64,000 nucleotides of DNA, from contig CALSLP010000001.1 in NCBI GenBank assembly GCA_943787225.1, forward strand, positions 840,964-904,963, given 5' to 3'. This DNA is from an uncultured Alphaproteobacteria bacterium. GTDB taxonomy: Bacteria > Pseudomonadota > Alphaproteobacteria > MPNO01 > UBA2964. This document shows positions 41,395 to 60,815 of this stretch, piece after piece. Position numbers and translations under genes: made by a program. Below the pieces are notes generated by a model, which searched no databases, was not told the origin of the DNA, and saw only the letters and a list, made by a program, of their open reading frames with translations. Within the stretch, counting starts at the first letter, position 1; the number at the start of each line of letters is the position of its first letter.

Positions 41395-41540
41395 GCGTTG
41401 AATTTCCCACTATTGGTAGATCAAGGCATTCGATAGGCCAAACCACCCGACCACTTGTCCATGAATTTCAGAATTTTGGCGTGAGATATCTGGGTATGGT
41501 GGTTTGGTTAAGTGCTTTAAGAATTTAATACGCTGGCCTC

Positions 41541-42329: not shown

Positions 42330-42458
42330 GTTCTTGTATGAAAGCTCCTTGATTGTCCTACTCCTCCTCGGGTCTTTTTGTGAGATTGCAGTTTATCCAT
42401 AAGAAAGGCATTCGGGCCAAACCGGCCGCGACACCCGCAACTGGTTTCATCGGCTTAC

Positions 42459-43250
42459 TTAAGCGTCGCCCATCGGCGGTTGGCAAGTTTCGCACACGAA
42501 TGTCCGTCGCCCATTGATTTCGAAGCGTCGTATTGCTCCCTTGCAGGCCGGACATTGGTCTTTGGCGAAAATGTTGACCTGTTCGCGATAGCGGCTTTCT
42601 GGCGGACGCGCGTCATCAACCGTAATGATTGCGTTGCGCTTTACGCCGATCGCAAGCAACGCTTTCGCATCGCCCCATATCCGATCAAATGTTGCGCGGT
42701 CGATGGCGCGGCCGGGCGTTTCAGGGTGGACTGCCTGACGCCACAAGATTTCCGAGCGATAGATATTGCCGATCCCCGCCATCACCGACTGGTCCATGAT
42801 CAGCCGTCCGATGGGCGCGTTGCTCTTGGCGATTTTTTCGAAAGCCTGGGCCGGATTGGCGTCAGATCTCAAAACATCCGGTCCGATGCGGTGGAGCAGG
42901 GACAAGGTTTCCGGCTCATCGAGGACCCGGCAAATGGTCGGCCCATTGACATCGACGACATGCGCGTCGCTGACAAGGCGGACACGTACGGCGCCCCGCG
43001 GTTCCAACAGTGGCAACTTGTGCTTCCGAATTCGGCCAAAGAGACCGAGGTGGACGTGGAGCACGTCGCCGCTATTAAAACAATAAAGAAGGTGCTTTCC
43101 GTATGCCTCGACCACACGGCAACGCTGCCCCGTAATGCGGGCCGCGCCTTCGGAGAACCGACCTTGCGGTGACGACACACTGAGGATTTGGCCTGCCAGC
43201 ATCCGGTGATGGTCGCGTGCAGCACGATGGATTGTGTGGCCTTCTGGCAC
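42459..43250 (-). CDS. Fpg/Nei family DNA glycosylase (endonuclease VIII-like)
   Basis: N-terminal MPEGHTI, an H2TH region, and the C-terminal zinc finger CPACKGAIRRFEINGRRTFVCETCQ. Confidence 0.85.
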   Translation of the reverse strand: MPEGHTIHRAARDHHRMLAGQILSVSSPQGRFSEGAARITGQRCRVVEAYGKHLLYCFNSGDVLHVHLGLFGRIRKHKLPLLEPRGAVRVRLVSDAHVVDVNGPTICRVLDEPETLSLLHRIGPDVLRSDANPAQAFEKIAKSNAPIGRLIMDQSVMAGIGNIYRSEILWRQAVHPETPGRAIDRATFDRIWGDAKALLAIGVKRNAIITVDDARPPESRYREQVNIFAKDQCPACKGAIRRFEINGRRTFVCETCQPPMGDA

Positions 43251-43294
43251 CGAGCCTCTCTAATTTCCCAGGACTACCTCGCCCCTCACTTTGA

Positions 43295-43816
43295 TCAGGG
43301 GTTATCGGCTTTCTTTAATTTGTCCAACCAGTTTCTAATCCGCTCACGATTAACCCCCAGATCCCAATAACCGTAGTTTGACCGACTATAGATGATGAAC
43401 GAAGCTCTTGAGTCGACGCTTGCACCCTGGATCCAAATCGTATCCGGAAAACCGAATAATCGGGAACGCTGGATAAACACCAACTGGTTAAAAGTCGGAT
43501 TGGATCCTACGAGCGTTGTGCGAGGCTCGGCTGTTATCAGCTTCCTCGCCTGATTAATTAGCTCGGTCTTGGTTGTCTGGAAAATTGGGCTTTCAAAGTC
43601 GGCTTCCGCTCGACAAAGTCTTGGCGGACAGGCAAGAGCATCGTTCGGCGAATGCGACCGTTCAACGTTACGGAGATCGATTGTCTCGCTCTTCTTGACG
43701 TCCAGCGAACAACCAGGCAACAGAGCCAATAGCATCAAAGTAATTACCTTCCTTCCGATGGAATTGCATCTAAGGATAGGGCACTTCCGTTCTACGCTTC
43801 TCAACAGCCGAATCAT
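43295..43816 (-). CDS. DUF1499 family lipoprotein
   Basis: Lipobox LMLLALLPGCS followed by LFGFPDTIWIQ...IYSRSNYGYWDLGVNRERIRNWL. Start set at the internal Met. Confidence 0.6.
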   Translation of the reverse strand: MIRLLRSVERKCPILRCNSIGRKVITLMLLALLPGCSLDVKKSETIDLRNVERSHSPNDALACPPRLCRAEADFESPIFQTTKTELINQARKLITAEPRTTLVGSNPTFNQLVFIQRSRLFGFPDTIWIQGASVDSRASFIIYSRSNYGYWDLGVNRERIRNWLDKLKKADNP

Positions 43817-44069
43817 GATTTTCCCTATTGCATACTGATATAGCGCGCTTTTTTGTTGATCCAATAACTGGCTCAAATCGTATTAATGATGTGTTCAGTA
43901 GTGATTATGCAGTAGTTTTCTTAACGGCGCTACTGATTGTCACTTAGTAGCGAACAGTGACCTGAGGGCCACCCAGATTTCCTCCCTGATCTCCGGTGGC
44001 CCTCTACTTCCCGCCAGCCAATAAATGGCTGCTCGTTCGTAAAAGGTCCACATTTGAGAGGAGAGCTTT

Positions 44070-44240
44070 GTGGCCACCAACGCAAAAAAACCCTCGCCTG
44101 ATCACCCGTACCGCGTTTTGAAGCGCAAGGGCCTACGATGTCGCGCAAACTTTATTAGCTCTTGGGAGGGAGAGCGCATATGCAAGAGATGCAAGAACTC
44201 TCATGATTGGCGCAGCGGCACTACACCGTTTGATGACTAA
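44070..44240 (+). CDS. possible 56-aa basic Cys/His-containing protein (below the ORF-track size cut-off)
   Basis: GTG preceded by GAGAGGAGAG at 6-nt spacing. Reads (M)ATNAKKPSPDHPYRVLKRKGLRCRANFISSWEGERICKRCKNSHDWRSGTTPFDD. It fills an otherwise empty 440-bp gap. Confidence 0.35.
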   Translation: MATNAKKPSPDHPYRVLKRKGLRCRANFISSWEGERICKRCKNSHDWRSGTTPFDD

Positions 44241-44312
44241 CCAAAGCCAACGAGAGCAAGTACCTAAGGTGCAACGGAACAATCGGAGCCTCGATTTGGG
44301 TGTCAAAAGTCC

Positions 44313-44927
44313 ATGACAATGAAAACGCGTTGGTGGTGGATCCGGCACGCGCCGGTTGTTAACCCGGAGGGCAAACTCTACGGCCAGCTAGATCTGGACG
44401 TCGATTTCTCTGACGGCAAAAAGCTCGAAGCTTTGGCTAAAATTCTTCCTGATAACGCGGTCTGGGTAACAACATCGTTGCGCCGGGCGAGAGAAACAGC
44501 AAATAGATTGTCTGCAATTACGACGACGGCGCGGTCGATAGATGAGCATGACAATTTGCGCGAACAATCTTTCGGTGACTGGGAGGGTTCCCGTTGGCAG
44601 GATATACCTGCTGCTGTTAGCGACGCATTTTGGAAGGATCCAGCAAAAAATCGTGTTCCAAATGGCGAGAGCTTTGCTGATGTTGTGACGCGCGTAACCG
44701 AGACGGTTGAACAACTTAATACCCACCATACCGGCAGAGATATTGTTGCGGTAACGCATACGGGATCTATTCGCGCTGCAATCACCCACGCCTTAGGAGG
44801 AGATGCACGGGCTGGTTTGTCGTTTCAGCTAGCACCTCTCTCGCTTACACGTATCGACGCGATCCATCAGGATGACAACGTTTGGTGGCGGGTTTCAGGG
44901 GTTAATCTCTTCGGGGATCATGAATGA
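44313..44927 (+). CDS. histidine phosphatase family protein (PGAM/CobC-like)
   Basis: WWWIRHAPV (RHG-type motif), ...SLRRARETA... and VAVTHTGSIRA. Confidence 0.8.
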   Translation: MTMKTRWWWIRHAPVVNPEGKLYGQLDLDVDFSDGKKLEALAKILPDNAVWVTTSLRRARETANRLSAITTTARSIDEHDNLREQSFGDWEGSRWQDIPAAVSDAFWKDPAKNRVPNGESFADVVTRVTETVEQLNTHHTGRDIVAVTHTGSIRAAITHALGGDARAGLSFQLAPLSLTRIDAIHQDDNVWWRVSGVNLFGDHE

Positions 44928-45093
44928 CCTTTTACCCTGGGGACTAAGTAATTCTTGCGGAGGTTAGAGACGGTGTTATCCGTGTACTCTCCTCTCACAG
45001 GAAAAATACAGAACATTAGTTTGAGCCATGGTGTATAAAATTAGTCTTTGCTAAGGTGACTTTAACGGGGTTCACGATGATCGGAGAAAGAAC

Positions 45094-45492
45094 GTGGTTT
45101 TTGTAAAAGCCTATGCCATTACTTTGATAGTGTTCCTCGGTCTCGATTTCCTTTGGTTAGGCTTTGTTGCACGAGGATTTTACGCGTCCCAGTTGGGCGA
45201 TCTTATGCGTGAAAACATAAACTACTTGGCGGCTGGCATTTTCTATCTCGCCTACGTCGCGGGCATTGTGTTTTTTGCGATTGCTCCGGCTTTGGCGGAG
45301 GGAAGTTGGCGCAAGGCTGTCATCCATGGCGCTATTCTCGGGCTTCTCGCCTATGGCACCTATGACATGACAAATATGGCCACGCTAAACAATTGGCCTA
45401 TTACCATGAGCTTCGTTGACATAATTTGGGGTGGCGTACTCACTGGTCTTTCGGGACTTCTTGGATTCTTGATCGTACGAGCTTTACCTTAA
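45094..45492 (+). CDS. DUF2177 family membrane protein
   Basis: 132-aa ORF with 4 TM segments. LDFLWLGFVARGFYASQLGDL and YGTYDMTNMATLNNWP match my recollection of DUF2177. Confidence 0.65.
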   Translation: MVFVKAYAITLIVFLGLDFLWLGFVARGFYASQLGDLMRENINYLAAGIFYLAYVAGIVFFAIAPALAEGSWRKAVIHGAILGLLAYGTYDMTNMATLNNWPITMSFVDIIWGGVLTGLSGLLGFLIVRALP

Positions 45493-45634
45493 ACACTGGT
45501 CCACTAAAAAAGGAGGCTATTGTTCCCCCGACGAATAATCCAGAATTGAGAGTTTCTTCTATTTTTCGGCCGGTCTTCCAGCGTGCCCCCTATCAACTAA
45601 CAACCAGGTAACGTTTAACCACGGCCTGCGAGCC

Positions 45635-45880
45635 TTACAACGCGCGGGAATGGTTCTGCACTTGCTTGTGTGCTTCGCTGTCCCGCAAGGCATCGATATC
45701 TGCCTGGGTTTCCCACTCCGCATAAGAAATATATTCGCCTGGCGCATCCTCGCATTTCAGGAGTTGCTCCGAACGGCACCCTTTTTGCTTAATCATCAAA
45801 GGCGCACAATCTTCCTTCCAAATCCCCTCCGCTTCGCTTGCCTGGCCCGGATCGACTGCCACGTGTATCACACCTAACAA
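45635..45880 (-). CDS. antibiotic-biosynthesis-monooxygenase (ABM) domain protein
   Basis: VIHVAVDPGQ...GCRSEQLLKCEDAPGEYISYAEWETQADIDA fits the ABM ferredoxin-like fold. An ATG just upstream (ATGACGG) is out of frame by one base, so the 5' end is uncertain. Confidence 0.6.
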   Translation of the reverse strand: MLGVIHVAVDPGQASEAEGIWKEDCAPLMIKQKGCRSEQLLKCEDAPGEYISYAEWETQADIDALRDSEAHKQVQNHSRAL

Positions 45881-46039
45881 CCGTCATTTTCTAGGCTCCA
45901 TTATTCTGATTCTCGTTCGTTAAATACTACACATTCGCCGGCCTCTCCTCCCAATTTATCGAGACTTAAATGTCGATGGGTCTAATCGATTCCTAAGCAC
46001 GCTCGTCGTCCATTTGAACTGAGGGACGAGATGTTACCC

Positions 46040-46438
46040 TTAGATTGTCGTGCCTTCTCGCTGGATCGCCAGCCATACCTTTGTATTTTTGCCAACTTTG
46101 GCAGGCACAACGCGCCAATACATGATAAAGGGTGTCCCGTCTTTTTTGTAGTTTATTGCCTTGCCTTCGAAACGGCCGCCCGTCTTCAGTGCCGTGCTTA
46201 GACGGGCTATCACTGCATTATCGGTCGCTGGGCCTTGCAAAATACGCGGCGTCTTCCCGAGGACCTCATCCGGTGAGAAGCCCGTCAGCTTCTTAAACGC
46301 CTTATTCGCATAGATGATCTTTGAATCTTTGGTCGCATCCGTAATCAGGATCGAGTCAAAACTGTTTTCGGCGAGCGCTTTTAGGACACTGAGGCTCACA
46401 TCTGCCCCTTCTAGTACTTTTTCGACGGATTTTGCCAT
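46040..46438 (-). CDS. short LOV-like PAS protein lacking the adduct-forming cysteine
   Basis: SILITDATKDSKIIYANKAFKKLTGFSPDEVLGKTPRILQGPATD...INYKKDGTPF...WLAIQRE aligns residue-for-residue with the LOV core. However, GxNCRFLQG is replaced by GKTPRILQG, with Pro at the Cys position. Confidence 0.7.
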   Translation of the reverse strand: MAKSVEKVLEGADVSLSVLKALAENSFDSILITDATKDSKIIYANKAFKKLTGFSPDEVLGKTPRILQGPATDNAVIARLSTALKTGGRFEGKAINYKKDGTPFIMYWRVVPAKVGKNTKVWLAIQREGTTI

Positions 46439-46557
46439 TGGCGTAAAGCTCCCATAATAGGCTGTTGCACAATCGGGTGTTGGCACTGTTACCAAGCAAA
46501 GGTAAGCGACAAAGCAAGCACCAAGACAGATGTAAGATTGCCGCTCTATAACTTTAG

Positions 46558-46583
46558 TACGCGTCTTCCAAGGATTTAGATCA
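46558..46583 (-). promoter_or_regulatory. ECF sigma-E-type promoter candidate (TGATCT-N16-CGTA) upstream of the LOV-like gene
   Basis: Minus strand reads TGATCT aaatccttggaagacg CGTA. Confidence 0.55.
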
Positions 46584-46690
46584 CAGTGCTGAAATATTTA
46601 TCTAAATGCCGTTGCACCGTGGAAACACTAGTTTGAGCGAGATGTATAGACAATGCTAGAAAAGAGTGTATTCGAACCCCAAGGTATCGT

Positions 46691-48133
46691 TTAGCTCTGC
46701 TTTCGCGCCTTTAGCTCGGCGTACGCATCCAAGGCACGCTGCCTTGCCCATTTGTGATCGACTAGCGGTTCCGGGTACCCCTCAATTCGAACCCCGCTTT
46801 CCCATGGCGCGTGCACGTGCTTGTCGGGCAGTTCAGCGATTTCGGGTACCCATTTTCGGACATAGGTTCCTTCTGGATCGAATTTTTGACCCTGCAATAT
46901 GGGGTTGAAAATTCGAAAATAGGGCGATGCATCCGCTCCAGAGCCGGAAACCCACTGCCAACTTGCCGAGTTGTTCGCGAGATCGGCATCGACGAGAGTG
47001 TCCCAGAACCAACGAGCTCCCTCCTGCCAGGGAATAAGCAAGTGTTTGGTCAAAAATGAGGCCACGATCATTCGAACGCGATTGTGCATCCAACCGGTTT
47101 GCCATAGCTGGCGCATACCGGCATCGACGATTGGGTAGCCGGTTTTACCTGATTGCCACGCTTCAACTGCCTGCTGATCCTCCCGCCACGGGAAATCCGC
47201 AAATTTGTTATTGAACGATGACTCGGTTATGTGCGGCCAATGCCATAACAAGTGATAGGAAAACTCACGCCAAACCAATTCACGAAGATAAGACGTGCGG
47301 CCTTTACGAGTGTTTTCATAGGTGTCTGTGGACTGATGGATAAAGTGCCAGATCTCTCGTGGACTGATCTCGCCGTAATGGAGGTGCGGTGACAGTGCCG
47401 ATGTACCCTTTCTGTCGGGCCGATCGCGATCTTTGTCATAAGTGGCAAGGCGATCCTCAACAAAATCGTTAAGTTTTGAAAATGCGCCGGTCGCACCTGG
47501 TTGCCAATGCTCTTGAAATCCTGAAGCCCAATTGGGTGCGGTAGGCCGTAACGCCCAGTTGTTGAGCTGCTCGCTCTTCGGCCACGTCTTGGGCGGGGTT
47601 AGTTTGCCCGGTGCAGGGAGAGGATCCCTCACAGGCTCCATTGCGAGACACGCCTTGTAGAAGGGCGTGAATACGCGGAACGGGTCGCCTGATTTGGTTT
47701 TTACGGCTTCGGGTTCGAATAATAACGCACCGCCAAATCGTCGACATTCTATGCCTTTATCCATCAGATATTCGGAAATGATTTTTTCTTCGGCAGCGTT
47801 TTCCGACTCGTAGCGGCGGGTGAAATAAATTTCCTTGGCGCCAATTTCATCAACCACGCTGGCAAGCACGTCTTGCGCTTGTCCCGCGGCGCAGGATCAA
47901 CCGGCTCTGCATGGTTTGAAGAGCGTTATCCAGTTCAGCCAGGCTGCCTTCGAGCCACCAACGGCTTGCCCCGCCCGGTGTCCAATCGGCCCGGTGTTTG
48001 TTCGCCGTATATGAAGAGGGGAACGACCGGCGCGCCGCTTTGCGACGCCGCATGCAGTGCCGCATGGTCGCTCGATCCGCAAGTCTTGACGAAACCAGAG
48101 AATAATGGGATCGGCCTGTGAAATACTAGGCAT
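46691..48133 (-). pseudogene. phr: deoxyribodipyrimidine (CPD) photolyase with about 3 frameshifts in the first 280 nt
   Basis: The main ORF 46691-47869 carries the FAD-binding domain (WREFSYHLL, WMHNRVRMIVASFL, NNSASWQWVSGSGADASPYFRIFNP). The N-terminal alpha/beta domain is spread over three frames: ILWFRQDLRI, then SDHAALHAASQSGAPVVPLFIYGE, then GGASRWWLEGSLAELDNAL..SRLILRRG. Confidence 0.8.
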
Positions 48134-48274
48134 TCTTCAAAAAAACACAGGTCAGTGGTTCCATATTAAGTCGTATTCGCTACAATTCTGCCGATAACGT
48201 CCGACAATAATGCCTTTCTAAAAAATGCTTTATTCATGGTTGACCCGTATCTGAATCGTTGCCCTGTTGATAGA

Positions 48275-48766
48275 TCATGATCCCTCTTTCGGCTCAACAT
48301 GAGCCTCGACCAACCATAAACTTTTGTCGGTAGCTCGCGAAATCTAAGTGAACATGTCAGCGGTGTCATCGTCGCCGAGTTCGGCCGCCTCCTTAGAAGC
48401 GTCGCGCACCGTTTTAGCGAATACAGACAAGGCGTCAGAGACTGCATCGACGTGACTGGATTGAGTATGGATATCCATAGGATACTCTGCCAAGCTTGAT
48501 GTTTGCTCTGCCACCCGCACGGTGCCATTGGCTTGACCGCCAAGGGCGATGATCCTCTCGGCCATCATATCGCTTTCAGCTAACACCTCTGCTGCAATCT
48601 GGTCGAACAGCTCATGCAGGCCGATAAAGCTCGGCCCCCGCACATTCCAGTGGGCCTGCTTGATCTGGGTTTACAAATCAATGGAATCCACAAGTCTCGG
48701 CTGAATTATTGACACCATGTCTGACCGGATATTTTCCGACATGTCGTTGCGTGTTCTGATCATCAT
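48275..48766 (-). pseudogene. dps: Dps family ferritin-like DNA-protection protein with two in-frame stops
   Basis: A single frame reads MMIRTRNDMSENIRSDMVSIIQPRLVDSIDL-TAA(48671-48673)-TQIKQAHWNVRGPSFIGLHELF...DDDTADMFT-TAG(48344-48346)-ISRATDKSLWLVEAHVEPKEGS. The stops replace the Tyr and Glu expected in Dps. Confidence 0.75.
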
Positions 48767-48937
48767 CTTGTCCGTCCTTTGTTGTCTAGTAACTCATGGG
48801 AACTTGCCGCCCCTTGGTATTCCAAATCTTTGGTATACCGCTGACGATTGTGGTTACGCTTCTTTTCTTTGGTCACTCAGACAGCCGAACCCTCTTCACC
48901 TTGGGGGTGTGGTGCGAGACTGGGCAGTGACATATAT

Positions 48938-48963
48938 TACGGACGACAGGGCGCTTTGGTTCA
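48938..48963 (-). promoter_or_regulatory. weaker sigma-E-type promoter candidate (TGAACC-N16-CGTA) upstream of dps-phr
   Basis: Minus strand reads TGAACC aaagcgccctgtcgtc CGTA. It has one mismatch in the -35 core relative to the other sites. Confidence 0.3.
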
Positions 48964-49044
48964 GAATCGATCGTTATAGATGTCGTCAGAAAGTCCAAAG
49001 GATGGCGATCAGATCATGGCCTGTGCCGCTTTTAGTTAGCGTGC

Positions 49045-49680
49045 TCAAGTATTGATCAAGTCCATCAGTCGTCGCTCGATCGCGGGATCGGCGTCGAACG
49101 CCCCGGTAAAGGTTCTCGTCACCATGGCAACGCCAGGTTTATTGACGCCACGGGTTGTCATGCATTGATGCTGTGCCTTTATGATTACGGCGACACCTCT
49201 TGGGAGGAGCGCCTGATCGATGCAATTGGCAATTTGCGCCGTCATAGTTTCCTGGGTTTGAAGGCGACGCGCATAGGCATCCACCACACGAGCCAGTTTA
49301 CTTATTCCGACCACCCTATCGGCAGGCAGATAGGCGACATGCGCGGTGCCGGTGATTGGAACAACATGATGTTCGCAATGCGATTGGAAAGTAATATCGC
49401 GCAGCAACACGATGTCGTTATATCCATGAACTTCTTCGAAGGTGCGCGACAGCATGGCCGCGGGATCGGTTTCATAGCCGCTGAAAAATTCTGAATAGGC
49501 CTCGGCAACCCGTGACGGCGTATCCACCAGCCCCTCGCGGTTGGGGTCATCCCCGGCCCAGATGAGAAGTGTCCGCACGGCCGCTTCGGCGTCCTCTCGC
49601 GAGACCCCGTGCAATACTGTAGCTGTTTCGGTCAGAACTTCTCCTGTATCCGATGATGTCGGTTGATCCAATGGTGCCAT
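49045..49680 (-). CDS. folE: GTP cyclohydrolase I
   Basis: 211-aa ORF reading [47 protein letters not shown]. Confidence 0.9.
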
Positions 49681-49758
49681 GATCTTTCCCCCTGCTATGT
49701 GCGATTACGATTTTGAGTCTGTGTCTGCGTACAGCTCGACGTTGATGAATGTTCGGAT

Positions 49759-50368
49759 CTAGGATTTGTCCATCTCAATGACCTGGCCGACAGCCGGAAC
49801 GCCGCCTTCCTCTCCCCAGCGGGGTGAGGATTCGAGATGCACGCCCAGTTGATCGAGCATGCGCATGCAACTTTGATCGACAACGTCCTGCAGACGTCTT
49901 CGGCCTGTTATAGAACGCGGGTACCGGTGGGAAGATCACCGTACCCAACCGTGTCAGCTTCATCATATTTTCCAGATGACCTGCATGCAGTGGCGTCTCG
50001 CGGACGGCAAGCACCAGTTTGCGGCGTTCCTTGAGAATAACGTCGGCAGCGCGGCTTATAAGATCGCCCGTATTGCCTGACGCGATGTTGGACATGGTCT
50101 TGATGGAACAGGGCGCGACGATCATACCTTCGCTGAAAAACGACCCCGACGAAATGGCCGCGCCGATGTTGCCGGGCGCATGGACTTCATGGGCTAGCTC
50201 ATTAAGACGTCCGGGGTCCACGTCATGTTCCATCTTGAGCGTTAGCTTGGCGGACTGGCTCATCACCAGATGGATTTCCGTGTCCCCTTCGCTACGAAGC
50301 AGCTCCATCAGACGCCAACCAAAAATAGTCCCCGTGGCGCCGGTGATGCCGATGATAATTCTCTTCAT
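49759..50368 (-). pseudogene. ubiX: UbiX-family flavin prenyltransferase with one frameshift near 49900
   Basis: MKRIIIGITGATG...MIVAPCSIKTMSNIA...VRETPLH is intact up to PAFYNRPKT. The family-like C-terminus LQDVVDQSCMRMLDQLGVHLESSPRWGEE...stop then continues in another frame. Confidence 0.8.
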
Positions 50369-50463
50369 GATGGGTTCTCCAAAGGTCGCGGGAAGGATGG
50401 GGATGGCTTACAGGAATACGGGGGCCGCGCCGATGGCAAGACCCCCGTCGTCTGAGCGGCGGA

Positions 50464-50973
50464 TCACATGGTCGGGGGCATGATCACCGTGTCGATGACA
50501 TGGATAACACCGTCGGAGGCGACCACGTCGGCCTTGACCACATTGCGTTGTCATCTTGACGCCCTTCATGGCGTCGACCGAAACCTTACTGCCCTGCACG
50601 GTGGCGACTTTCAGGGACTTGCCGGCGATATCGCTCGCCATGACCTTCCCGGGCAGCACGTGACAGGTGAGGATCGCGGCTAGCTTGCTTTTGTTTTCGG
50701 GCTTGAGCAGGGATTCCAAAGTACCGGCTGGTAGCTTGGCAAAGGCCGCGTCGGTCGGGGCGAAAACCGTAAACGGACCCTTTCCTTTTAGCGTTTTAAC
50801 CAGCCCGGCAGCCTTAACGGTTGCAACGAGGGTGTTGAAAGAGCCAGCCGACACAGCAGTATCGACGATATCTTTCTTATGCTTCCGTGACCGTCTGCGT
50901 TGACAGCGACGGCACCAAACATGAGAGGGAGAGTTACGGCGAATACCGCTATGCGGGAGAGGAAGGTTGACAT
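50464..50973 (-). pseudogene. secreted fasciclin (FAS1) domain protein with at least 2 frameshifts
   Basis: The signal peptide [26 protein letters not shown] (track ORF 50788-50994) is in one frame. The FAS1 core [24 protein letters not shown]...[11 protein letters not shown] is in another. The C-terminus [25 protein letters not shown] is in a third. Confidence 0.75.
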
Positions 50974-51096
50974 ACTTGAAAGCTCCTTGAGCATAAATGT
51001 GAATGTTGCTTTTGCGTTCTCGGTCGAACCCGCCGCTCGAGCAGATCAAAACCATATCACATCGATCACTCTGCAGTCTCGTCCGTTAACAGTTGA

Positions 51097-51122
51097 TACG
51101 GCGTCGCTCCACTTCCAGATCA
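51097..51122 (-). promoter_or_regulatory. ECF sigma-E-type promoter candidate (TGATCT-N16-CGTA) upstream of fasciclin / ubiX / folE
   Basis: Minus strand reads TGATCT ggaagtggagcgacgc CGTA. Confidence 0.55.
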
Positions 51123-51294
51123 TATGTTGTCAAAAAATTCTGCCACGCAGCCGACTCAACGATCCGCTAGCTCGCCGATTTGATAATAATAAATGAAGCC
51201 GCTCGCGAGTTGTACAGCGTGTCTGCGAGGCGTGAGCTCTGGGCTCAGGAAACGGCAAAGAACACTGAACTGCTTTAGGACGATCGCTTTCCCG

Positions 51295-51783
51295 TCACTG
51301 GGTTTCGCAATAGTCAAGCAACGCCTTTACCATTCCCACGTAACCGGTACATCGACACAAATGTCCAGACAACATATCGCGGATCTCTTCTTCGGTGGGG
51401 CGAGGATTTTCTCTCAAGAATGCGGTCAATGACATCAGTATTCCTGGTGTGCAGTAACCACATTGCAGAGCGTGATGCTTTCTGCAGGCCTTTGCGCAGA
51501 TCCGAGAGCTCGCCTTTTTCATCTGCTAAGCTCCCCGACGTTTCGATCGTGCATCCATCTGCTTGAACGGCCAATGTCAGGCAAGCTCTTGCTATCTCGC
51601 CATAATGAGAAGCGTGCATGCCCCACAAACCCCGTGCTCGCAGCCAACATGGCAGGTCGTTATGCCAATTTCATGAGTGAGAAAATCAGTCAGCAGCATC
51701 CGGGGTTCGGCGTGGCCGGAAACCTTTTGCCCATTGAGAATAAATGAAACGGGGTGGAGGGCGTTTTTCTGAAGGACTGCCAT
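51295..51783 (-). pseudogene. (2Fe-2S)-binding protein, CoxS / aldehyde-oxidase small-subunit type, with 2 frameshifts and no partner subunits
   Basis: MAVLQKNALHPVSFILNGQKV...CHVGCEHGVCGACTLL (end of track ORF 51592-52206). This is followed by ACLTLAVQADGCTIETS (ORF 51314-51628), and then [13 protein letters not shown]...HLCRCTGY (ORF 51295-51522). Confidence 0.75.
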
Positions 51784-51818
51784 GTGATCTAAATGAACCT
51801 GCGGATGAACTTTTAAAT

Positions 51819-51844
51819 TACGTTCCCCGCTTCGCCGTGGATCA
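51819..51844 (-). promoter_or_regulatory. ECF sigma-E-type promoter candidate (TGATCC-N16-CGTA) upstream of the 2Fe-2S protein gene
   Basis: Minus strand reads TGATCC acggcgaagcggggaa CGTA, about 35 nt upstream of ATG 51783. Confidence 0.6.
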
Positions 51845-51918
51845 ACGTTCCGGGGCTTGAACAACAGAAGGCATGGGGCAGCTGTCACGTGCGAAGAAGA
51901 TGATTCCGAGAACAGGCA

Positions 51919-51944
51919 TGATCCATTCGGGAAGCGATGTCGTA
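51919..51944 (+). promoter_or_regulatory. ECF sigma-E-type promoter candidate (TGATCC-N16-CGTA) upstream of the membrane protein / NmrA-like / GNAT unit
   Basis: Plus strand reads TGATCC attcgggaagcgatgt CGTA. It is divergent from the site at 51819-51844. Confidence 0.6.
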
Positions 51945-51982
51945 AACCATATGAACCGCAAACGTCAGACAAGGAGAGGATT

Positions 51983-52276
51983 GTGCGAGACCTTTTTGCT
52001 AGTGTAATGAACGAAAATAAGAACCCGTTACAGAGCCTTCCCAAAATACAGCGATACCAAATCATGGTCATTTTATCGCTCATGTGGAGTACCATTTTTA
52101 GCGTTGCAATTGGCTCTTGGTACTGGTGGGGCGAATTAGTTATCGGCCACGTGGCCGTGGCAACTGGCGTTCTTTTCACCGGATTAACGTTCCGCGCGGC
52201 GCGCAAGAAGACGCATAGGGATATGTATCGCGCTACGGATGGATCGGCGCGTTACGACGATATTTGGGGCGGTTGA
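51983..52276 (+). CDS. small membrane protein (2 TM), hypothetical
   Basis: GTG with an AAGGAGAGG RBS, downstream of the promoter candidate. Reads IMVILSLMWSTIFSVAIGSWYWWGELVIGHVAVATGVLFTGL. The track start at 51857 lies upstream of the predicted transcription start. Confidence 0.5.
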   Translation: MRDLFASVMNENKNPLQSLPKIQRYQIMVILSLMWSTIFSVAIGSWYWWGELVIGHVAVATGVLFTGLTFRAARKKTHRDMYRATDGSARYDDIWGG

Positions 52277-52329
52277 ACACGGTCCGCTTGACATCTTTAG
52301 ACTCAAAGCAAAGGCTCGGCGCTTTGAAA

Positions 52330-52971
52330 ATGGCAAAAGTAATCATCATCGGCGCGAGCCGGGGCATCGGCTTAAAAACCGTAAAGAGCGCTTTGGACCT
52401 TGGGCATGACGTTCGGGCCTTTGCCCGAACAATCGATCAGACAGCAATCACGCATCCCAGGCTTGAAAAATTTCAGGGCGACGCGCTTCTCGAGAAAGAT
52501 TTGAAGCGCGGCTTGCGTGGCGTAGACACCGTTATCCAGTGTCTCGGTCTCCCTTTGGGCCCAAAGCTTATTCTTAAACCGACCAATCTTTTCTCGCATG
52601 CAACTCGACTCCTTATAGCCTCAATGGAGCAGTCATCTGCCAAAAAGTTGATCGCTGTAACGGGATTTGGCGCCGGTGACAGCAAGTCGAGCATCAGCTG
52701 TTTCCAAAAGATCCCATTCAGGCTCGTTTTTGGCAGGGCCTATGACGACAAATCCGTTCAAGAAGATCTAATTCGTAAAAGCAACCTGGATTGGATCATC
52801 GCACGACCTGTTGTTTTAACGAATGGACCACGAACAGAACGGTACCGTGTACTCGCTGAACCGAGGGAGTGGAGAAACGGTTTGATTTCTCGCGCTGATG
52901 TCGCTGACTTCCTGGCTCAGCAAATCGATAGTGATGACTATCTCGGAAAGGCGCCGGTTCTCGCTTACTGA
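52330..52971 (+). CDS. NAD(P)H-binding NmrA/SDR-like oxidoreductase
   Basis: MAKVIIIGASRGIGLKTVKSALDLGHDVRAFAR is an atypical SDR/NmrA Rossmann N-terminus. Confidence 0.75.
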   Translation: MAKVIIIGASRGIGLKTVKSALDLGHDVRAFARTIDQTAITHPRLEKFQGDALLEKDLKRGLRGVDTVIQCLGLPLGPKLILKPTNLFSHATRLLIASMEQSSAKKLIAVTGFGAGDSKSSISCFQKIPFRLVFGRAYDDKSVQEDLIRKSNLDWIIARPVVLTNGPRTERYRVLAEPREWRNGLISRADVADFLAQQIDSDDYLGKAPVLAY

Positions 52972-53045
52972 TATTCTTCATCGGCGCCTTGATTCCGCAA
53001 AAACTTTTACATTTATCTTCATTTAAAACACAACGAGAGTGCAAC

Positions 53046-53318
53046 ATGGATGAGCGTTGGCAGTGCGGCGACGGAAATTGCATAACGCCGCATGTTTATG
53101 AAAACTCGATTGTGTTGCGAAACGCAAACACGACGGTCGGATATGCGACGTTCTCTAAAGCCGACGCGTCGCTTGATTACATATTCGTTAACCCTGCCTT
53201 TCGGCGGCAGGGATTAGGTCGACAACTCGTCGCGTTCTGCGAAAAAGAGTGTGGAGCCAAATTGGCGCCCGCTCCACCGATTTCGCCCGTCGGCCAGCTG
53301 TTTTTCTCTGCGATTTAA
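53046..53318 (+). CDS. small GNAT family N-acetyltransferase
   Basis: YIFVNPAFRRQGLGRQLVAFCE is GNAT motif A (Q/RxxGxG/A). Confidence 0.6.
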   Translation: MDERWQCGDGNCITPHVYENSIVLRNANTTVGYATFSKADASLDYIFVNPAFRRQGLGRQLVAFCEKECGAKLAPAPPISPVGQLFFSAI

Positions 53319-53346
53319 GATACCGGCATTTTGCTCCGTTCGTCTG

Positions 53347-53372
53347 TGATCCACCGGATCTGCCGACGCGTA
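53347..53372 (+). promoter_or_regulatory. ECF sigma-E-type promoter candidate (TGATCC-N16-CGTA) upstream of two small hypothetical genes
   Basis: Plus strand reads TGATCC accggatctgccgacg CGTA, about 25 nt upstream of ATG 53398. Confidence 0.6.
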
Positions 53373-55175: not shown

Positions 55176-55900
55176 TCATACCCGACATGGCTTCGGTCTG
55201 AGCCGGTCGATACGACGCATGATGTCGGCGAAAAGGTCACGGTGGATGGCGATCTCAGCCACCTAGAACATGACGTAGCGCCCGTGGTGGACGATCTGCG
55301 CGCCGATCTTGATGAGCTTTTCGCGCAGCGTCGTCAGTGACCACTTGTTCACGGTATCGGGCAGCGCGAGCGGCCTCATGAGGTTGCCGAGATTGCGGGC
55401 GAGTGCGTGGAGGTGGAGCCTGACCTCGTTGTTGCGGGACTTCTGGCACGATAGCCGGGTCCACTTGATGGCGTTCTTGCCTTCCTTGATGTGCTGTTCC
55501 GCCGTGCCTCGTTGATTGTAGAAGGCGACGACGCGCTTGGGCGATCGAGACAAATTGGTGAAGGTGAAGCCGACGCGCTGATACAGGTCGCCCGGATGCC
55601 CTCGGACCTTGGCGACCACGCGACGGGGCTTCGTCCAGCTAGCGGTTTGGTAGCTGAAGTTTGCGTGATACCGGCGCACATCGTTCGGTGGCCGGCCGAC
55701 CGGTCGCTTGAGCAGTTGCGCGATGCTGTCCCGGAGCACCTTGTTGGCCGGCAGGCGGATCGTATAACTGAAGGCTTCGGCCTCGAGCAACTTTTACATC
55801 CCGGGTAATGCAAACGCCGCGTCTCTCTGGAAGTGGCGTCGAAACAGCCTGTCTCGGTAACGGGCGACAGCTTCGTCGAGTTCACTGTAGGAGCCTAGAC
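55176..55900 (-). mobile_element. IS1380-family transposase remnant (C-terminal ~240 codons, two in-frame stops, 5' truncated)
   Basis: Reads SELDEAVARYRDRLFRRHFQRDAAFALPGM-TAA(55794-55796)-KLLEAEAFSYTIRLPANKVL...VVAFYNQRGTAEQHIKEGKNAIKWTRLSC...HGRYVMF-TAG(55263-55265)-VAEIAIHRDLFADIMRRIDRLRP. This matches the IS1380 transposase C-terminal half as I recall it. No N-terminal half and no terminal inverted repeats were found. Confidence 0.75.
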
Positions 55901-56118: not shown

Positions 56119-56791
56119 TCAAATTCCTATCATTGGTTGGAAAAGTCGCGGCACCCATTCCTTAAACTTTATGGGCGCATCAGTGATGACCAGGCAGATA
56201 CAGTCTGTTGCCGTGTCTGCTATCGGTTTATGGACGAGTTCTTCATCCACGTCTTCCATATCGCCCGCGCTAAAGAGCGACAATTCATCCTGATAACTAC
56301 CAGAGAGAACGAGCGTCAACTCTCTTCCGCGATGTCCGTGACTGGGGACCGGTTTTCCTGCTTCTAATGCGCAACAGACGTGCACGCGCGCTTTTATCAG
56401 CGGTTTCAATCAAGTGTTGATAAGCCCCGCCGCCAATAGATTTCCATGGGACATCATCCACATCGTGCCCCACATACTCACGAAGGACGCGTGGAAATGT
56501 TGTGCTAACAATCGCGCGTTTATCCAACGAGAGCTGGGTATTCCCGGATGCTGCCTCGCTAGAAGGTTGATCGATTCTGGCAAGAACGTGGTCGAGGGCA
56601 TCCAATGACATCCGTTCGTCAGGCATGTCCGCAAACAGGATGCCACCGATTGTTTCAGCAAGTTCGAGTGTCCTCCGACATTCGGGGCATAATGAGAGGT
56701 GCGATGCTACCGCAAGGCTCCAGGTCTCCGAAAGTGAGCCCGCTGCATAGCTCAGTAGCAGATCGTCATGTGGATGATGGTTTACTGTCAC
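56119..56791 (-). pseudogene. chrR: anti-sigma-E factor ChrR (zinc ASD plus cupin domain), split by a 1-nt insertion near 56355
   Basis: The N-terminal ORF 56297-56791 carries the ZAS motif H-LSL-C-PE-C. The C-terminal ORF 56119-56409 carries the cupin AGKPVPSHGHRGRELTLVLSG. Deleting one base in CGCATTAGAAGCAGG restores LLRIEAGKPVPSHGH. Confidence 0.8.
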
Positions 56792-56821: not shown

Positions 56822-57370
56822 TCAAAAGATAATCTCAAGACGTGATTTGACCGTCCCAAGGGGAATGCCGATGGCGTCCGATATTTCCTGGTGTGATAGG
56901 CCTTCGATAAACGAAAGCTGGACCACCTCCCGCTGATCTTCGGGCAGATCAGCAATCGAGCGTTTTACGCGCTCGACGATTGTCGATTGCTCCATATTCT
57001 GAAGGGGCGTTGGCGAGTCGTCCGGCACGAGCATTGGGTCATCAGGGTCGAGGGCCGGTCGTTTCTCCTTCCGCAGTCGATCGATCCTCCGGTTTCTCGC
57101 AATGGTAAATATCCACGTGACCGCAGAGGCCTTTTTGGGGTCGAATTGACCTGCTTTACGCCACACCGTAATGAACGTCTCCTGCGTGATTTCTTCAGCT
57201 AACGCAGGATCAGAGCCGATCTTCATCATGTAAGCCTTCACGCGGGGCCCTAATGCCGCAAATAACTTCGCAAAGGCGTCGCGATCTTGTGTCGAGCCAA
57301 CTCGCTCAAGCAGATCGTTTTCGGAAAGCGGCACTTTAATGTTTTCCTCTATGGAAACTTGCCACTTCAT
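56822..57370 (-). CDS. rpoE: ECF sigma-70 family factor, RpoE (ChrR-partnered) type
   Basis: Region 2 is FAKLFAALGPRVKAYMMK...AEEITQETFITVWRKA. Region 4 is LPEDQREVVQLSFIEGLSHQEISDAIGIPLGTVKSRL. Start set at Met 57370, downstream of the predicted transcription start. Confidence 0.85.
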   Translation of the reverse strand: MKWQVSIEENIKVPLSENDLLERVGSTQDRDAFAKLFAALGPRVKAYMMKIGSDPALAEEITQETFITVWRKAGQFDPKKASAVTWIFTIARNRRIDRLRKEKRPALDPDDPMLVPDDSPTPLQNMEQSTIVERVKRSIADLPEDQREVVQLSFIEGLSHQEISDAIGIPLGTVKSRLEIIF

Positions 57371-57474
57371 AACTTCACTGCGAGCTACAGTCAATCCGAT
57401 CACTGCAAGATTTGAAGCGAGCAAGACCCCTGGATGATCTGAATTGGAATGAAGCATGGTTGCCATGTGCGTGC

Positions 57475-57500
57475 TACGCATCTAATTGGCTTTTGGATCA
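57475..57500 (-). promoter_or_regulatory. autoregulatory sigma-E-type promoter candidate (TGATCC-N16-CGTA) upstream of rpoE-chrR
   Basis: Minus strand reads TGATCC aaaagccaattagatg CGTA. Confidence 0.65.
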
Positions 57501-57633
57501 GTTTTATTGCTTAAAGTTGACCCTGAAGGCTTTGCACGCCCAAATGTTAAAATGAGACCTTGGCGAAGGAGATTGCACCGGCCCGATGATGCACCAAACA
57601 CCGCTTAAAACTAGATTCATTTGCAATGTTTAG

Positions 57634-57659
57634 TGATCTAAGTATTTTCGGGCTGCGTA
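57634..57659 (+). promoter_or_regulatory. ECF sigma-E-type promoter candidate (TGATCT-N16-CGTA) upstream of the BoxB-like gene
   Basis: Plus strand reads TGATCT aagtattttcgggctg CGTA, 30 nt upstream of ATG 57689 and divergent from the rpoE promoter. Confidence 0.6.
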
Positions 57660-57688
57660 ATAATCTGGTTCCCTACTTGGAGTACCCC

Positions 57689-59113
57689 ATGACCATCGAT
57701 TTGACTGCTCGAATACCCAATAACGTCAATCTCGCCGAAGACCGTCGCCTTCAAAGGGCCTTGGAGTCTTGGCAACCGACATTCGTTAATTGGTGGAAGG
57801 ATATGGGTCCTGAAGGAGCGCTTAATCACGATATCTATTTGAGAACGGCAGTTGACGTGGCGGCAGAGGGCTGGGCGCATTTCGATTATGTGAAGATGCC
57901 GGAATACCGTTGGGGTATATTTGTCGCGCCACCGGTCGAAGGCCGGACAATTGGTTTCGGTGAGCACAAAGGGCAAGCGGTCTGGAATGAAGTGCCCGGG
58001 GAATATCGGTCTTCGCTTCGTCGCTTGATCGTTACGCAGGGCGATACGGAGCCTGCCTCCGTTGAACAGCAACGAATGCTCGGTCTCACCTGTCCTTCTC
58101 TTTATGACCTGCGAAACCTATTCCAGGTTAACTGCGAGGAGGGCCGCCACTTGTGGGCCATGGTTTACCTGCTACACGCTTATTTTGGTCGCGATGGCCG
58201 TGAGGAGGCGGAGGCGCTGCTGGAACGTCATTCGGGTGACCCGGACAAGCCGCGTATTCTCGGGGCTTTTAATGAACAGACGCCAGACTGGCTTTCCTAC
58301 TTTATGTTTACGTTCTTCACCGACCGGGATGGTAAGTTCCAACTGTCCTCCCTAGCTGAATCAGCCTTCGATCCGTTAGCCCGAACCTGTCAGTTTATGC
58401 TGACGGAGGAGGGGCACCATATGTTCATCGGCACGACCGGTGTTGCGCGCGTGGTCACCCGCACCTGCCAGGTCATGAAGGACCTAAAGACCGATGATCC
58501 GGAGCGTATTCGATCAGCGGGCGCAATTGATCTGCCAACCTTGCAGCGTTACCTCAATTTTCATTACAGCGTGTCTCTTGATCTCTTTGGTCAGGAGATA
58601 TCAACTAATGCAGCCAACTACTTCACGGCGGGCCTCAAGGGACGTTTTGAGGAGAGCAAAATCGATGACGATCATCATCTAAACGATGACACATATTCGA
58701 TCACCATGTTTGACGATGATCAGATCAAGAAAATCGATTGCAATGCGCTGGTCGCCGTCAACGAACGCCTGAGGGATGATTATGTAACGGACTGTCAATT
58801 GGGCGTCGATCGCTGGAATAAAATATTGCGGAAATACAAGATCGATTCCCGGCTGGCTCTCCCGCACCGCGGCTTTAACCGATATGTCGGTTCTTTTTCT
58901 GGTGCGACGATAACGCCTGATGGAGACCTCATCACTGCGGCCGAGTGGACAAAGGGCAAAGATGACTGGTTGCCATCAGAGCACGACCGCGCCTTTGTCA
59001 TTTCGCTCCAGAAGCCTGTCACAGAGCCCGGAAAGATGGCTGGATGGATCGCTCCACCCGGTCGTGGGATCGACGGGCGCCCGCTAGACTTCGAATATGT
59101 CAAGTTCCACTGA
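57689..59113 (+). CDS. BoxB-like di-iron protein (benzoyl-CoA 2,3-epoxidase oxygenase-component family), orphan
   Basis: MTIDLTARIPNNVNLAEDRRLQRALESWQPTFVNWWKDMGPEG...VTQGDTEPASVEQQR...NCEEGRHLWAMVYLLH...MLTEEGHHMF closely follows the BoxB sequence pattern I recall, including the two ExxH di-iron motifs. No boxA or boxC lies nearby. Confidence 0.75.
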   Translation: MTIDLTARIPNNVNLAEDRRLQRALESWQPTFVNWWKDMGPEGALNHDIYLRTAVDVAAEGWAHFDYVKMPEYRWGIFVAPPVEGRTIGFGEHKGQAVWNEVPGEYRSSLRRLIVTQGDTEPASVEQQRMLGLTCPSLYDLRNLFQVNCEEGRHLWAMVYLLHAYFGRDGREEAEALLERHSGDPDKPRILGAFNEQTPDWLSYFMFTFFTDRDGKFQLSSLAESAFDPLARTCQFMLTEEGHHMFIGTTGVARVVTRTCQVMKDLKTDDPERIRSAGAIDLPTLQRYLNFHYSVSLDLFGQEISTNAANYFTAGLKGRFEESKIDDDHHLNDDTYSITMFDDDQIKKIDCNALVAVNERLRDDYVTDCQLGVDRWNKILRKYKIDSRLALPHRGFNRYVGSFSGATITPDGDLITAAEWTKGKDDWLPSEHDRAFVISLQKPVTEPGKMAGWIAPPGRGIDGRPLDFEYVKFH

Positions 59114-59174: not shown

Positions 59175-60707
59175 CTAGACCTCGCGACTTAGGAATCTAG
59201 CTGCGTCTTCGCGCACAGCCTTTTTTCTTTCCTCGCTCATCCGATCCCAAGTGCGATAGACAGGCCCCAAACGCGGATTATCACCCAGATGTTCTCTATT
59301 CCTCGCCATAAAGTCCCAATAGAGATAATTGAACGGACAAGCGTCGGGCCCTTCTTTTTCTTTAACCTTGTAACGGCAAGATGAACAGTAATCGGACATC
59401 TTGTTGATGTAATTGCCGCTCGCTGCATAGGGCTTTGAGCCTAACAAGCCACCATCGGCAAACTGACTCATGCCAAGCGTATTGGGCAGTTCGACCCATT
59501 CATAAGCGTCGGCATAAACAGCGAGATACCATTCATGCACAGCTTTGGGATCCACACCGGCGAGCATGGCAAAATTACCCGTGACCATAAGTCTCTGAAT
59601 GTGATGGGCGTAGGCTTCATCTCGCGTTTGTTCTATGCAGGCCCGGAGGCAAGCCATGTCAGTGTCAGCGGACCAGTAGAAGGCCGGCAGTTGCTTTGAA
59701 TTTCCAAAAAAGTTTAGGTCCACATAGTCCGGCATTTTTAGCCAGTAAATACCGCGCACATATTCTCGCCATCCAATGATCTGCCGGATGAAACCCTCTG
59801 CCGAATTCAACGGCACGCGCCCTTTGCGGTATTCCTCTTCTATGAGCCGGCAAACTGTGAGCGGGTCAAGCAAGCCTGCATTGATGTAAAGCGAAAGGAA
59901 GGCATGAAAGAGGAACCGCTCGTCTTTTAGCATGGCGTCCTGGTAATCGCCGAAGGAGGGTAGTCCGCTGTCGATGAATTGCTGGAGTGCTGCTTCGGCT
60001 TCCCGGCGCGTGACCGCGAACCAAAACGGCTCTAGCGTGCCAAAATGATCGGTAAAGCGGTCTGATACCAGGGCAAGGACGTCCTCGGTAATAGCGTCGG
60101 GTTCAAAACGTTTTGGACCGACGAAGTCGAGATCTTTTCCCGCAGGCTTTCTATTCTCCGCATCGAAATTCCATTTACCGCCTTCCGGCTTGTCTCCATC
60201 TATAAGAAGCCCGGTCTTGCGGCGCATGTCGCGATAGAAATATTCCATACGGAGCTGTTTGCGGCCATGCGCCCATCCAGCAAATTCGGAGCGGGAACAC
60301 AAAAATCGGTCGTCATCGAGAATGGTCACAGGGACCGACAGTCGATTTGCCAGCTCCTCGAAATTTCTTCTCAGGCGCCATTCTCCTGGTTCCGTGACAA
60401 GGACGCGATCGCAACCGTGATCCTTCACAGCACGCTCGATTTCGCCGACCAGCGATCCTGAGTTCTTCGGATCATCCAACTTAAAGTAATTAACGGACCA
60501 TCCGGCTTCTCTGAGCTCCTCCGCGAAATGGCGCATTGCCGAAAAGAGAAAGGCTATTTTTTTCTTATGGTGAGGAACATAAGTAGCCTCGTCTACCACT
60601 TCTGACATCAGGACCACGTCTTGAGCTGGGTCAGCGGCGTTGAGAGACGAAATCATTGGCGAGAGTTGGTCGCCCAAGATCACGACAAGAGTATTATCAG
60701 TTTTCAA
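59175..60707 (-). CDS. FeS-containing cryptochrome/photolyase family protein (PhrB/CryB-like, (6-4) photolyase group)
   Basis: 510-aa ORF with N-terminal LVVILGDQLS. The C-terminal Cys pattern CSSC-x12-C fits the [4Fe-4S] ligands of the FeS-BCP group. TTG start. Confidence 0.8.
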   Translation of the reverse strand: MKTDNTLVVILGDQLSPMISSLNAADPAQDVVLMSEVVDEATYVPHHKKKIAFLFSAMRHFAEELREAGWSVNYFKLDDPKNSGSLVGEIERAVKDHGCDRVLVTEPGEWRLRRNFEELANRLSVPVTILDDDRFLCSRSEFAGWAHGRKQLRMEYFYRDMRRKTGLLIDGDKPEGGKWNFDAENRKPAGKDLDFVGPKRFEPDAITEDVLALVSDRFTDHFGTLEPFWFAVTRREAEAALQQFIDSGLPSFGDYQDAMLKDERFLFHAFLSLYINAGLLDPLTVCRLIEEEYRKGRVPLNSAEGFIRQIIGWREYVRGIYWLKMPDYVDLNFFGNSKQLPAFYWSADTDMACLRACIEQTRDEAYAHHIQRLMVTGNFAMLAGVDPKAVHEWYLAVYADAYEWVELPNTLGMSQFADGGLLGSKPYAASGNYINKMSDYCSSCRYKVKEKEGPDACPFNYLYWDFMARNREHLGDNPRLGPVYRTWDRMSEERKKAVREDAARFLSREV

Positions 60708-60754: not shown

Positions 60755-60780
60755 TACGTAACCCGTCCTCTGTTGGATCG
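60755..60780 (-). promoter_or_regulatory. ECF sigma-E-type promoter candidate (CGATCC-N16-CGTA) upstream of the FeS photolyase gene
   Basis: Minus strand reads CGATCC aacagaggacgggtta CGTA. Confidence 0.6.
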
Positions 60781-60789
60781 CCTTCGATG

Positions 60790-60815
60790 TGATCGGACCG
60801 GCGTCGAACCACGTA
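60790..60815 (+). promoter_or_regulatory. ECF sigma-E-type promoter candidate (TGATCG-N16-CGTA) upstream of the gpx / ubiG / DUF3429 / DUF2256 / DUF4149 unit
   Basis: Plus strand reads TGATCG gaccggcgtcgaacca CGTA. Its -35 hexamer lies 9 bp from the -35 of the divergent site at 60755-60780. Confidence 0.6.

Follow-up and report, generated by a model that had tools for sequence, protein, structure and literature searches.

To our knowledge, BoxB, the di-iron oxygenase subunit of benzoyl-CoA 2,3-epoxidase, is known solely as part of the aerobic benzoyl-CoA pathway. The reactive epoxide that it forms normally goes directly to BoxC, the product of an adjacent gene. The closest described counterparts of the gene considered here are BoxB of Azoarcus evansii (PDB 3PER, 3PF7, 3PM5, 3Q1G) and the boxABC clusters of Cupriavidus and Burkholderia, while the PaaA/PaaC subunits of phenylacetyl-CoA epoxidase (PF05138) belong to the same di-iron carboxylate fold family and also epoxidise an aromatic acyl-CoA. 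On the regulatory side, the closest described systems are the sigma-E/ChrR regulons of the extracytoplasmic function (ECF) sigma factor group ECF11, represented by RpoE-ChrR of Rhodobacter sphaeroides and PSPTO_1043/1042 of Pseudomonas syringae. ECF11 promoters tested experimentally in P. syringae, for example TGATCCactcttcatcccgctaCGTA (PMC5507510), are identical in form to those described below, and the core sigma-E regulon described for Rhodobacter consists of six genes (PMC5507510, PMC6852236).

Here we analyse a boxB gene that lies in a 64-kb stretch of an uncultured alphaproteobacterial genome (contig CALSLP010000001.1, positions 840,964 to 904,963), hereafter the window, and compare it with these systems. 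In contrast to the boxABC clusters, the window boxB is not preceded by boxC and has no boxA, boxR or benzoate-CoA ligase gene nearby; it is monocistronic, stands behind an ECF11-type promoter and lies inside an island of light-stress genes. The sigma factor pair beside it shares with the described ECF11 systems an anti-sigma factor of the ChrR family with ZAS and cupin parts, an autoregulated rpoE, the promoter form TGATCC-N16-CGTA and targets of photolyase type, whereas BoxB is here a predicted, lineage-specific member of the 'extended regulon'. On balance, and with moderate confidence, we read the locus as an ordinary functional BoxB whose gene was inserted as a single-gene block between a photolyase-like gene and rpoE-chrR and today has an ECF11 sigma-E promoter of its own, in a narrow alphaproteobacterial lineage known only from metagenomes.

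A canonical BoxB apart from its partner genes

We assessed the identity of the gene product, which an earlier note on this DNA had described as a 474-aa protein following the BoxB pattern with both ExxH motifs, using profile and structure-based comparisons, and that description is borne out. The open reading frame (ORF) spans 57626-59113 on the forward strand, with its likely start at ATG 57689, where all homologues begin. The protein scored 845.7 bits on TIGR03225, the NCBI equivalog model for BoxB (cut-off 499.1), over its full length (residues 4-473 against profile positions 2-471 of 471), compared to 915 bits for a genuine BoxB of Cupriavidus whose gene has boxC and boxA as neighbours. Residues 3-474 align with residues 2-473 of A. 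evansii BoxB (PDB 3PER, 3PM5) at 68% identity with zero gaps, the two proteins being equal in length. The match to the PaaA/PaaC family PF05138 was weak (19.7 bits, under the cut-off), such that kinship with the phenylacetyl-CoA enzymes is only distant and the protein is clearly BoxB and not PaaA.

The active-site comparison with Azoarcus BoxB that the earlier note had proposed was made by alignment, using the ligand and pocket residues listed for that enzyme (PMC5489048). All six di-iron ligands are identical (E120, E150, H153, D211, E240 and H243 in A. evansii numbering), the ExxH motifs reading E151-x2-H154 and E241-x2-H244 in the numbering of the window protein, in which E121 and D212 are also present. 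Six of the seven second-shell residues that position benzoyl-CoA are identical as well (Q116, T119, S123, F193, F206, T210). The sole change, F203Y, places a tyrosine that is found at this position in 12 of 80 aligned BoxB sequences, and in 10 BoxB homologues that are linked to boxC. Substitutions specific to the lineage were confined to 12 positions, none of them near the metal centre and three of them at otherwise conserved sites (S56D, I400V, M441Q). Identity to seven outgroup BoxB proteins equalled that of the boxC-linked sisters, without rate acceleration. The active site is thus intact and unchanged, and the protein is predicted to be catalytically active.

Partner genes were sought with BoxR, BoxC and BoxA from the Cupriavidus necator locus (L048 in our labelling of the loci compared) and with BoxC, BoxA and benzoate-CoA ligase from alphaproteobacterial relatives. 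The earlier note had found no boxA, boxC or ligase gene in the window, and tblastn agrees: boxA, boxC, boxR and the ligase gene gave no match in the 64 kb even at E ≤ 10, nor was any of the four matched in the flanks of related contigs, two of which (L001 and L170) reach several kb past the window end. The stretch around boxB that is free of boxA, boxC and the ligase gene extends over ~57 kb upstream and ~11 kb downstream. A search for the BoxC of the genome of L001, whose BoxB is MGB0575112.1, by NCBI accession numbering yielded few accessions, and the lone candidate, MFL2668795.1, came from another genome.

We surveyed the context of boxB in 80 genome loci and 80 metagenome loci encoding the closest BoxB relatives. 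Among the 138 loci outside the lineage of the window that had enough upstream sequence, boxC lay directly upstream of boxB (within 700 nt) in 135 and rpoE-chrR lay next to boxB in none, so that the BoxB clade consistently linked to rpoE-chrR that the earlier note had asked about does not exist in this sample. By comparison, boxA was near boxB in none of the 10 loci at ≥75% identity, which form the closest boxC-linked alphaproteobacterial clade. Because this sister clade also lacks an adjacent boxA, the absence of boxA is normal for the clade of the window while the absence of boxC is exceptional, and it is plausible that box partners act in trans. The boxA-less alphaproteobacterial boxC-boxB operons nearest to the window BoxB are those of loci L002-L017, L084-L087 and L100; since boxA is missing from the flanks there, the BoxB reductase of this closest clade is not obvious. 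At greater distance, boxA was found near boxB in 6 of 38 loci at 67-74% identity and in 59 of 79 more distant, mostly betaproteobacterial loci.

Sigma-E-type promoters and the light-stress island

As the earlier note had it, boxB is transcribed head-to-head with the ECF sigma operon, with rpoE and chrR on the minus strand and boxB on the plus strand, and an nGATCn-N16-CGTA element is present on each side. Both elements are exact ECF11-type motifs (Table 1). Across the window, TGATC-N17-CGTA occurs 11 times compared to 0.49 matches expected from shuffled sequence, and none of 100 shuffles reached 11. All 11 sites fall within the right-hand 24 kb (37743-60815), and 10 of them sit 8-190 nt 5' of an ORF on the same strand; the expected number of chance matches within 200 nt on the boxB strand is ~8 × 10−4. 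The distance from promoter to start codon at boxB resembles that of the other motif sites. The boxB promoter is conserved in at least nine assemblies, including two in which boxB itself carries a deletion (L001, L081-L083, L170, L172, L173, and boxB-deleted L163 and L174), across lineages separated at synonymous sites by a divergence (dS) of ~0.4, and changes among relatives are confined to the spacer, two bases of which differ in L001. The rpoE promoter motif has a positional equivalent in the sister lineage represented by L164. Dependence of boxB on sigma-E is thus predicted about as securely as sequence allows.

The genes behind the motif sites include those for a PF10014 2-oxoglutarate-Fe (2OG-Fe) dioxygenase, a LOV-like PAS protein, a fasciclin-UbiX-GTP cyclohydrolase I (folE) operon, an NAD(P)H-binding protein, rpoE-chrR, boxB and gpx-ubiG, and the same 24 kb also holds genes for a BLUF protein, a CPD photolyase, an Fpg/Nei glycosylase and a photolyase-like protein of DPRP type. 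The motif sites therefore mark a coherent 24-kb light and photo-oxidative stress island that contains boxB. Compared to the six-gene core of Rhodobacter, the sigma-E regulon of the window appears much larger and differently composed. We found no paper in the literature searched that describes BoxB as a member of a sigma-E/ChrR regulon or ties it to singlet oxygen.

The reading that boxB is a canonical catabolic gene outside sigma-E control, with the motif non-functional or secondary, boxA and boxC elsewhere and transcription governed by a benzoate-responsive regulator, agrees with the fully canonical protein, and a motif alone is no proof of regulation, given that many ECF11 motif sites in P. 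syringae are bound but lie in non-promoter positions (PMC5507510). We nevertheless regard it as unlikely: there is no gene for a BoxR-type regulator in the window and no sigma-70-like promoter in 57350-59300, which includes the rpoE-boxB intergenic region, whereas the spacing between the sigma-E-type motif and the start codon is typical, and the motif has been conserved while the two spacer bases changed in L001.

Table 1 Features of the boxB locus and its surroundings, in window coordinates.
Feature	Position	Strand	Basis or remark
boxB coding sequence (474 aa), di-iron oxygenase subunit of benzoyl-CoA 2,3-epoxidase	57689..59113	+	TIGR03225, alignment to PDB 3PER, Fe ligands
Predicted ECF11 sigma-E-type promoter of boxB, TGATCT-N16-CGTA	57634..57659	+	exact motif; -10 ends 29 nt 5' of ATG
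Shine-Dalgarno sequence GGAG	57679..57682	+	about 6-7 nt 5' of boxB ATG 57689; read from sequence
Block absent from L164-L167: 188-nt promoter-bearing upstream region and boxB coding sequence up to the stop	57501..59110	+	
Predicted ECF11 sigma-E-type promoter of rpoE-chrR, TGATCC-N16-CGTA, autoregulatory	57475..57500	-	exact motif
rpoE (ECF sigma factor)	56822..57466	-	ECF sigma models; true start may be ATG 57370
chrR (ZAS/cupin anti-sigma factor)	56119..56791	-	TIGR02451 109.5 bits for N-terminal part; two frames in window
Degraded DDE transposase remnant between PNPOx-like gene and chrR	55263..55885	-	overlapping broken ORFs
Photolyase-related protein of the DPRP family (PF04244), gene convergent with boxB	59175..60707	-	Pfam 292.8 bits
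Predicted near-consensus sigma-E-type promoter, cGATCC-N16-CGTA	60755..60780	-	1 mismatch; 5' of photolyase-related gene
Predicted sigma-E-type promoter	60790..60815	+	5' of gpx (60852-61412) and ubiG (61460-62233)
Eight further TGATC-N17-CGTA sites	37743, 37939, 43857, 46558, 51097, 51819, 51919, 53347 (span 37743..53372)	+, -, +, -, -, -, +, + (in that order)	

The sigma factor pair itself is imperfect in the window. Relative to L001, L081, L082 and L170, which are 96-99.6% identical to the window and all carry intact rpoE and chrR, a 1-nt insertion at ~56836 alters the 3' end of rpoE and shortens RpoE by ~12 residues, and another at ~56364 breaks chrR into two frames. In L082, where chrR is intact, the 223-aa protein scored 218 bits on TIGR02451 (cut-off 124.5). 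Further 1-nt insertions in coding sequence relative to L001 occur in a photolyase gene (47886, 47988, 48073) and at 49894, 51004 and 51022; the N-terminus of the CPD photolyase (46691-47869) is broken by single-base insertions, and the comparison with L170 shows ten gaps in 14.8 kb. Because the four near-identical contigs are intact and the window has other insertions of the same kind, the frameshifts are probably assembly errors, with a strain-specific defect as the alternative. If they were real, this strain would be without a working sigma-E/ChrR switch. A genuine loss of the anti-sigma factor leading to a constitutively active regulon was considered and set aside, as the four near-identical contigs carry intact genes.

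Two further observations concern the island. Genes of ubiquinone biosynthesis lie at or beside sigma-E-type promoters, namely those for the UbiX flavin prenyltransferase (49775-50368) and UbiG, with COQ7 just beyond the window end (L164 2383-2913, L170 6671-6940), and their location hints at quinone biosynthesis in the stress regulon. The exact motif at 37743-37768 on the plus strand lies inside, and antisense to, the ORF of a 2OG-Fe dioxygenase (37074-37823, minus strand) with no convincing ORF downstream; this site may have arisen by chance, or it may drive an antisense transcript or a small RNA.

Distribution, origin and selection

All contigs that showed the rpoE-boxB arrangement were 96-100% identical to the window (L001, L081-L083, L170-L173, L176), and the linkage does not reach beyond a single lineage of about species or genus rank. 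Among database proteins, the window BoxB belongs to one cluster at 90% identity with 26 members, and the next relatives, at no more than 80%, are from marine metagenome-assembled genomes (MAGs) of Rhodospirillaceae type (for example L003 and L004, with BoxB 77-80% identical). These marine boxC-boxB operons are like the window in that their BoxB sequences are the closest and boxA is not adjacent, but they keep boxC immediately upstream, have genes for benzoate-CoA ligase and 3-hydroxybenzoate 6-monooxygenase nearby and lack a sigma-E motif upstream. The sigma-E motif is not a feature of boxCB operons in relatives: across 78 other genome loci (~1.44 Mb), TGATC-N17-CGTA occurred at background frequency, and no copy was placed as a promoter of boxC or boxB. 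Separately, six loci of Methylomirabilota/Rokubacteria type (L022, L029, L036, L093, L102, L110) have an ECF sigma gene ~2-3.5 kb downstream of boxC-boxB; this sigma factor is 29-36% identical to the RpoE of the window, the TGATC-N17-CGTA motif is absent, and the association is probably unrelated to the finding in the window.

Sister lineages of the locus were identified with the neighbouring photolyase-like protein as anchor. One of them (L164-L167; anchor protein 89% identical) has the gene order ubiG / photolyase-like gene, rpoE, chrR and PNPOx-like gene, the photolyase-like gene being directly upstream of rpoE, with neither boxB nor an insertion sequence (IS) remnant. Homology of L164 to the window ends just past the -35 element of rpoE and restarts at 59111, inside the boxB stop codon, with ~55 unrelated bases in place of 57501-59110. 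Given its absence from this sister lineage, the segment behaves as an inserted block comprising boxB and the 188 nt upstream of it. A short-word blastn search with the 188-nt region against the window and all loci returned no other copy, and the region is therefore not a duplicate of another sigma-E promoter here. A second sister lineage (L163, L174, L175; anchor 87% identical), one member of which is the NCBI MAG GCA_038123115.1, has the same insertion site and the same promoter, such that the insertion predates the split of the lineages. In this lineage a 589-bp deletion has fused the promoter -10 element to boxB codon 189 (L163 4347-4422 and 3490-4350; L174 3783-4715; L175), and the boxB remnant of L174 and L175 contains one further stop codon. 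An IS sequence takes the place of rpoE-chrR in L163 and L174 (L175 is too short to show this). The joint loss of rpoE-chrR and a working boxB is suggestive only, being a single event that involves neighbouring genes.

A degraded DDE transposase lies between chrR and the PNPOx-like gene (Table 1). Its equivalent in L081 matches PF01609 and PF13701, and the corresponding stretch of the window (55247-56088) is absent in L164, where 56089 joins 55246 directly. The L164 contig is itself a mosaic: it matches the window at 98.4% identity over ubiG, DUF3429 and DUF4149 (L164 2681-5245 versus window 61436-64000), but identity falls to ~84% over the neighbouring photolyase-like gene and rpoE-chrR, a sharp boundary that suggests recent recombination between lineages.

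We estimated selection on boxB from ratios of non-synonymous to synonymous divergence (dN/dS). The window and L001 differ at 5 non-synonymous and 15 synonymous sites (dN/dS 0.096), and strains with 1-2 nt differences in boxB encode identical proteins. Over the 286 codons retained in L163, dN/dS was 0.079 at a dS of 0.40, compared to 0.091 at a dS of 0.65 for the adjacent photolyase-like gene. Most of the divergence between the window and L163 must predate the recent deletion in L163, which indicates that boxB was under strong purifying selection already in its orphan, sigma-E-linked position.

These estimates bear on the reading that boxB is a passenger, a stranded piece of a box cluster that landed here by rearrangement, plays no part in stress and is on its way to loss. 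The patchy presence of the gene among close relatives, the IS remnants that flank the locus and the restriction of the linkage to one narrow lineage all fit such a history. We doubt it all the same, as boxB is constrained no less strongly than its photolyase-like neighbour, the BoxB amino acids are identical among strains that differ at synonymous sites, and the promoter is perfect and conserved.

Function of the orphan gene

If an ordinary BoxB is indeed controlled by sigma-E, events at the locus could run as follows. Photo-oxidative stress or singlet oxygen, which is established to free sigma-E from ChrR in this family, would do so here, and RNA polymerase with sigma-E would initiate a few bases past CGTA 57656-57659. 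The resulting leader of ~20-25 nt, carrying GGAG, would lead to translation from ATG 57689. BoxB would then take electrons from a generic reductase or one encoded elsewhere and epoxidise benzoyl-CoA or a very close analogue, while the fate of the epoxide would be set by genes outside the region, be it a boxC elsewhere or something else. The monocistronic boxB would in this way be expressed together with the photolyases, gpx and the other genes of the island during photo-oxidative stress.

The recruitment of a BoxB homologue to photo-oxidative stress, proposed in the earlier note together with an oxidised aromatic or quinone compound as a possible substrate, is accordingly to be divided. Co-regulation is predicted, through the gene's own ECF11-type promoter within a dense cluster of such promoters, and a new substrate finds no support in the protein. 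The combination suggests that BoxB is expressed at times of stress, and its physiological role in stress is putative.

Several points weigh against an ordinary BoxB under sigma-E control. The separation of BoxB from BoxC is abnormal, adjacency of boxC being nearly universal among the loci surveyed, and in a genome devoid of boxC the usual BoxB product would be both reactive and a dead end. The frameshifts in rpoE and chrR, if real, would disable the proposed control in this strain. boxB is dispensable in the short term: one sister lineage has no copy, and another has lost the 5' part of the gene and shows a further stop codon. Finally, the boxB promoter is a prediction from sequence.

A neofunctionalised BoxB, acting on a different aromatic or quinone substrate derived from stress, or as an epoxide deoxygenase or oxygen scavenger independent of the box pathway, is a further reading. 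It is kept alive mainly by the persistence of purifying selection in the absence of neighbouring boxC, boxA and ligase genes; the setting of boxB among sigma-E promoters and light-stress genes, its decay in the lineage that lost rpoE-chrR at the locus and a deoxygenase activity of BoxB that has been proposed computationally (PMC5489048) point the same way. The protein speaks otherwise: the benzoyl-CoA pocket is unchanged apart from a residue shared with boxC-linked homologues, the few lineage-specific substitutions avoid the metal site, evolution is not accelerated relative to the sisters and the equivalog score is far over the cut-off, such that we consider neofunctionalisation improbable.

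A job in the singlet-oxygen response that is independent of BoxC, with BoxB induced by sigma-E and working on its own as a di-iron enzyme that draws electrons from a generic reductase, is in our view likewise a doubtful proposition. Roles of this kind may include the removal or repair of oxidised aromatic acyl-CoA, for example by the proposed epoxide deoxygenation, or the consumption of O2 and NADPH.

Both the enzyme family and the type of regulon are known, and their combination at this locus is confined to a narrow lineage. The locus is a natural case of an oxygenase gene that moved alone and either gained an ECF11 sigma-E promoter or came with one. Were boxA and boxC simply located elsewhere in the genome, it would be a modest instance of an operon that was split and placed under new regulation, whereas a BoxC-independent job, if true, would give benzoyl-CoA epoxidase a physiological role outside benzoate catabolism. 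Provided that the predicted promoter is active, the locus illustrates how the variable 'extended' sigma-E regulon gains members by the capture of single genes, and it would connect photo-oxidative stress with aromatic acyl-CoA metabolism, in a manner open to testing, in an uncultured alphaproteobacterial lineage.

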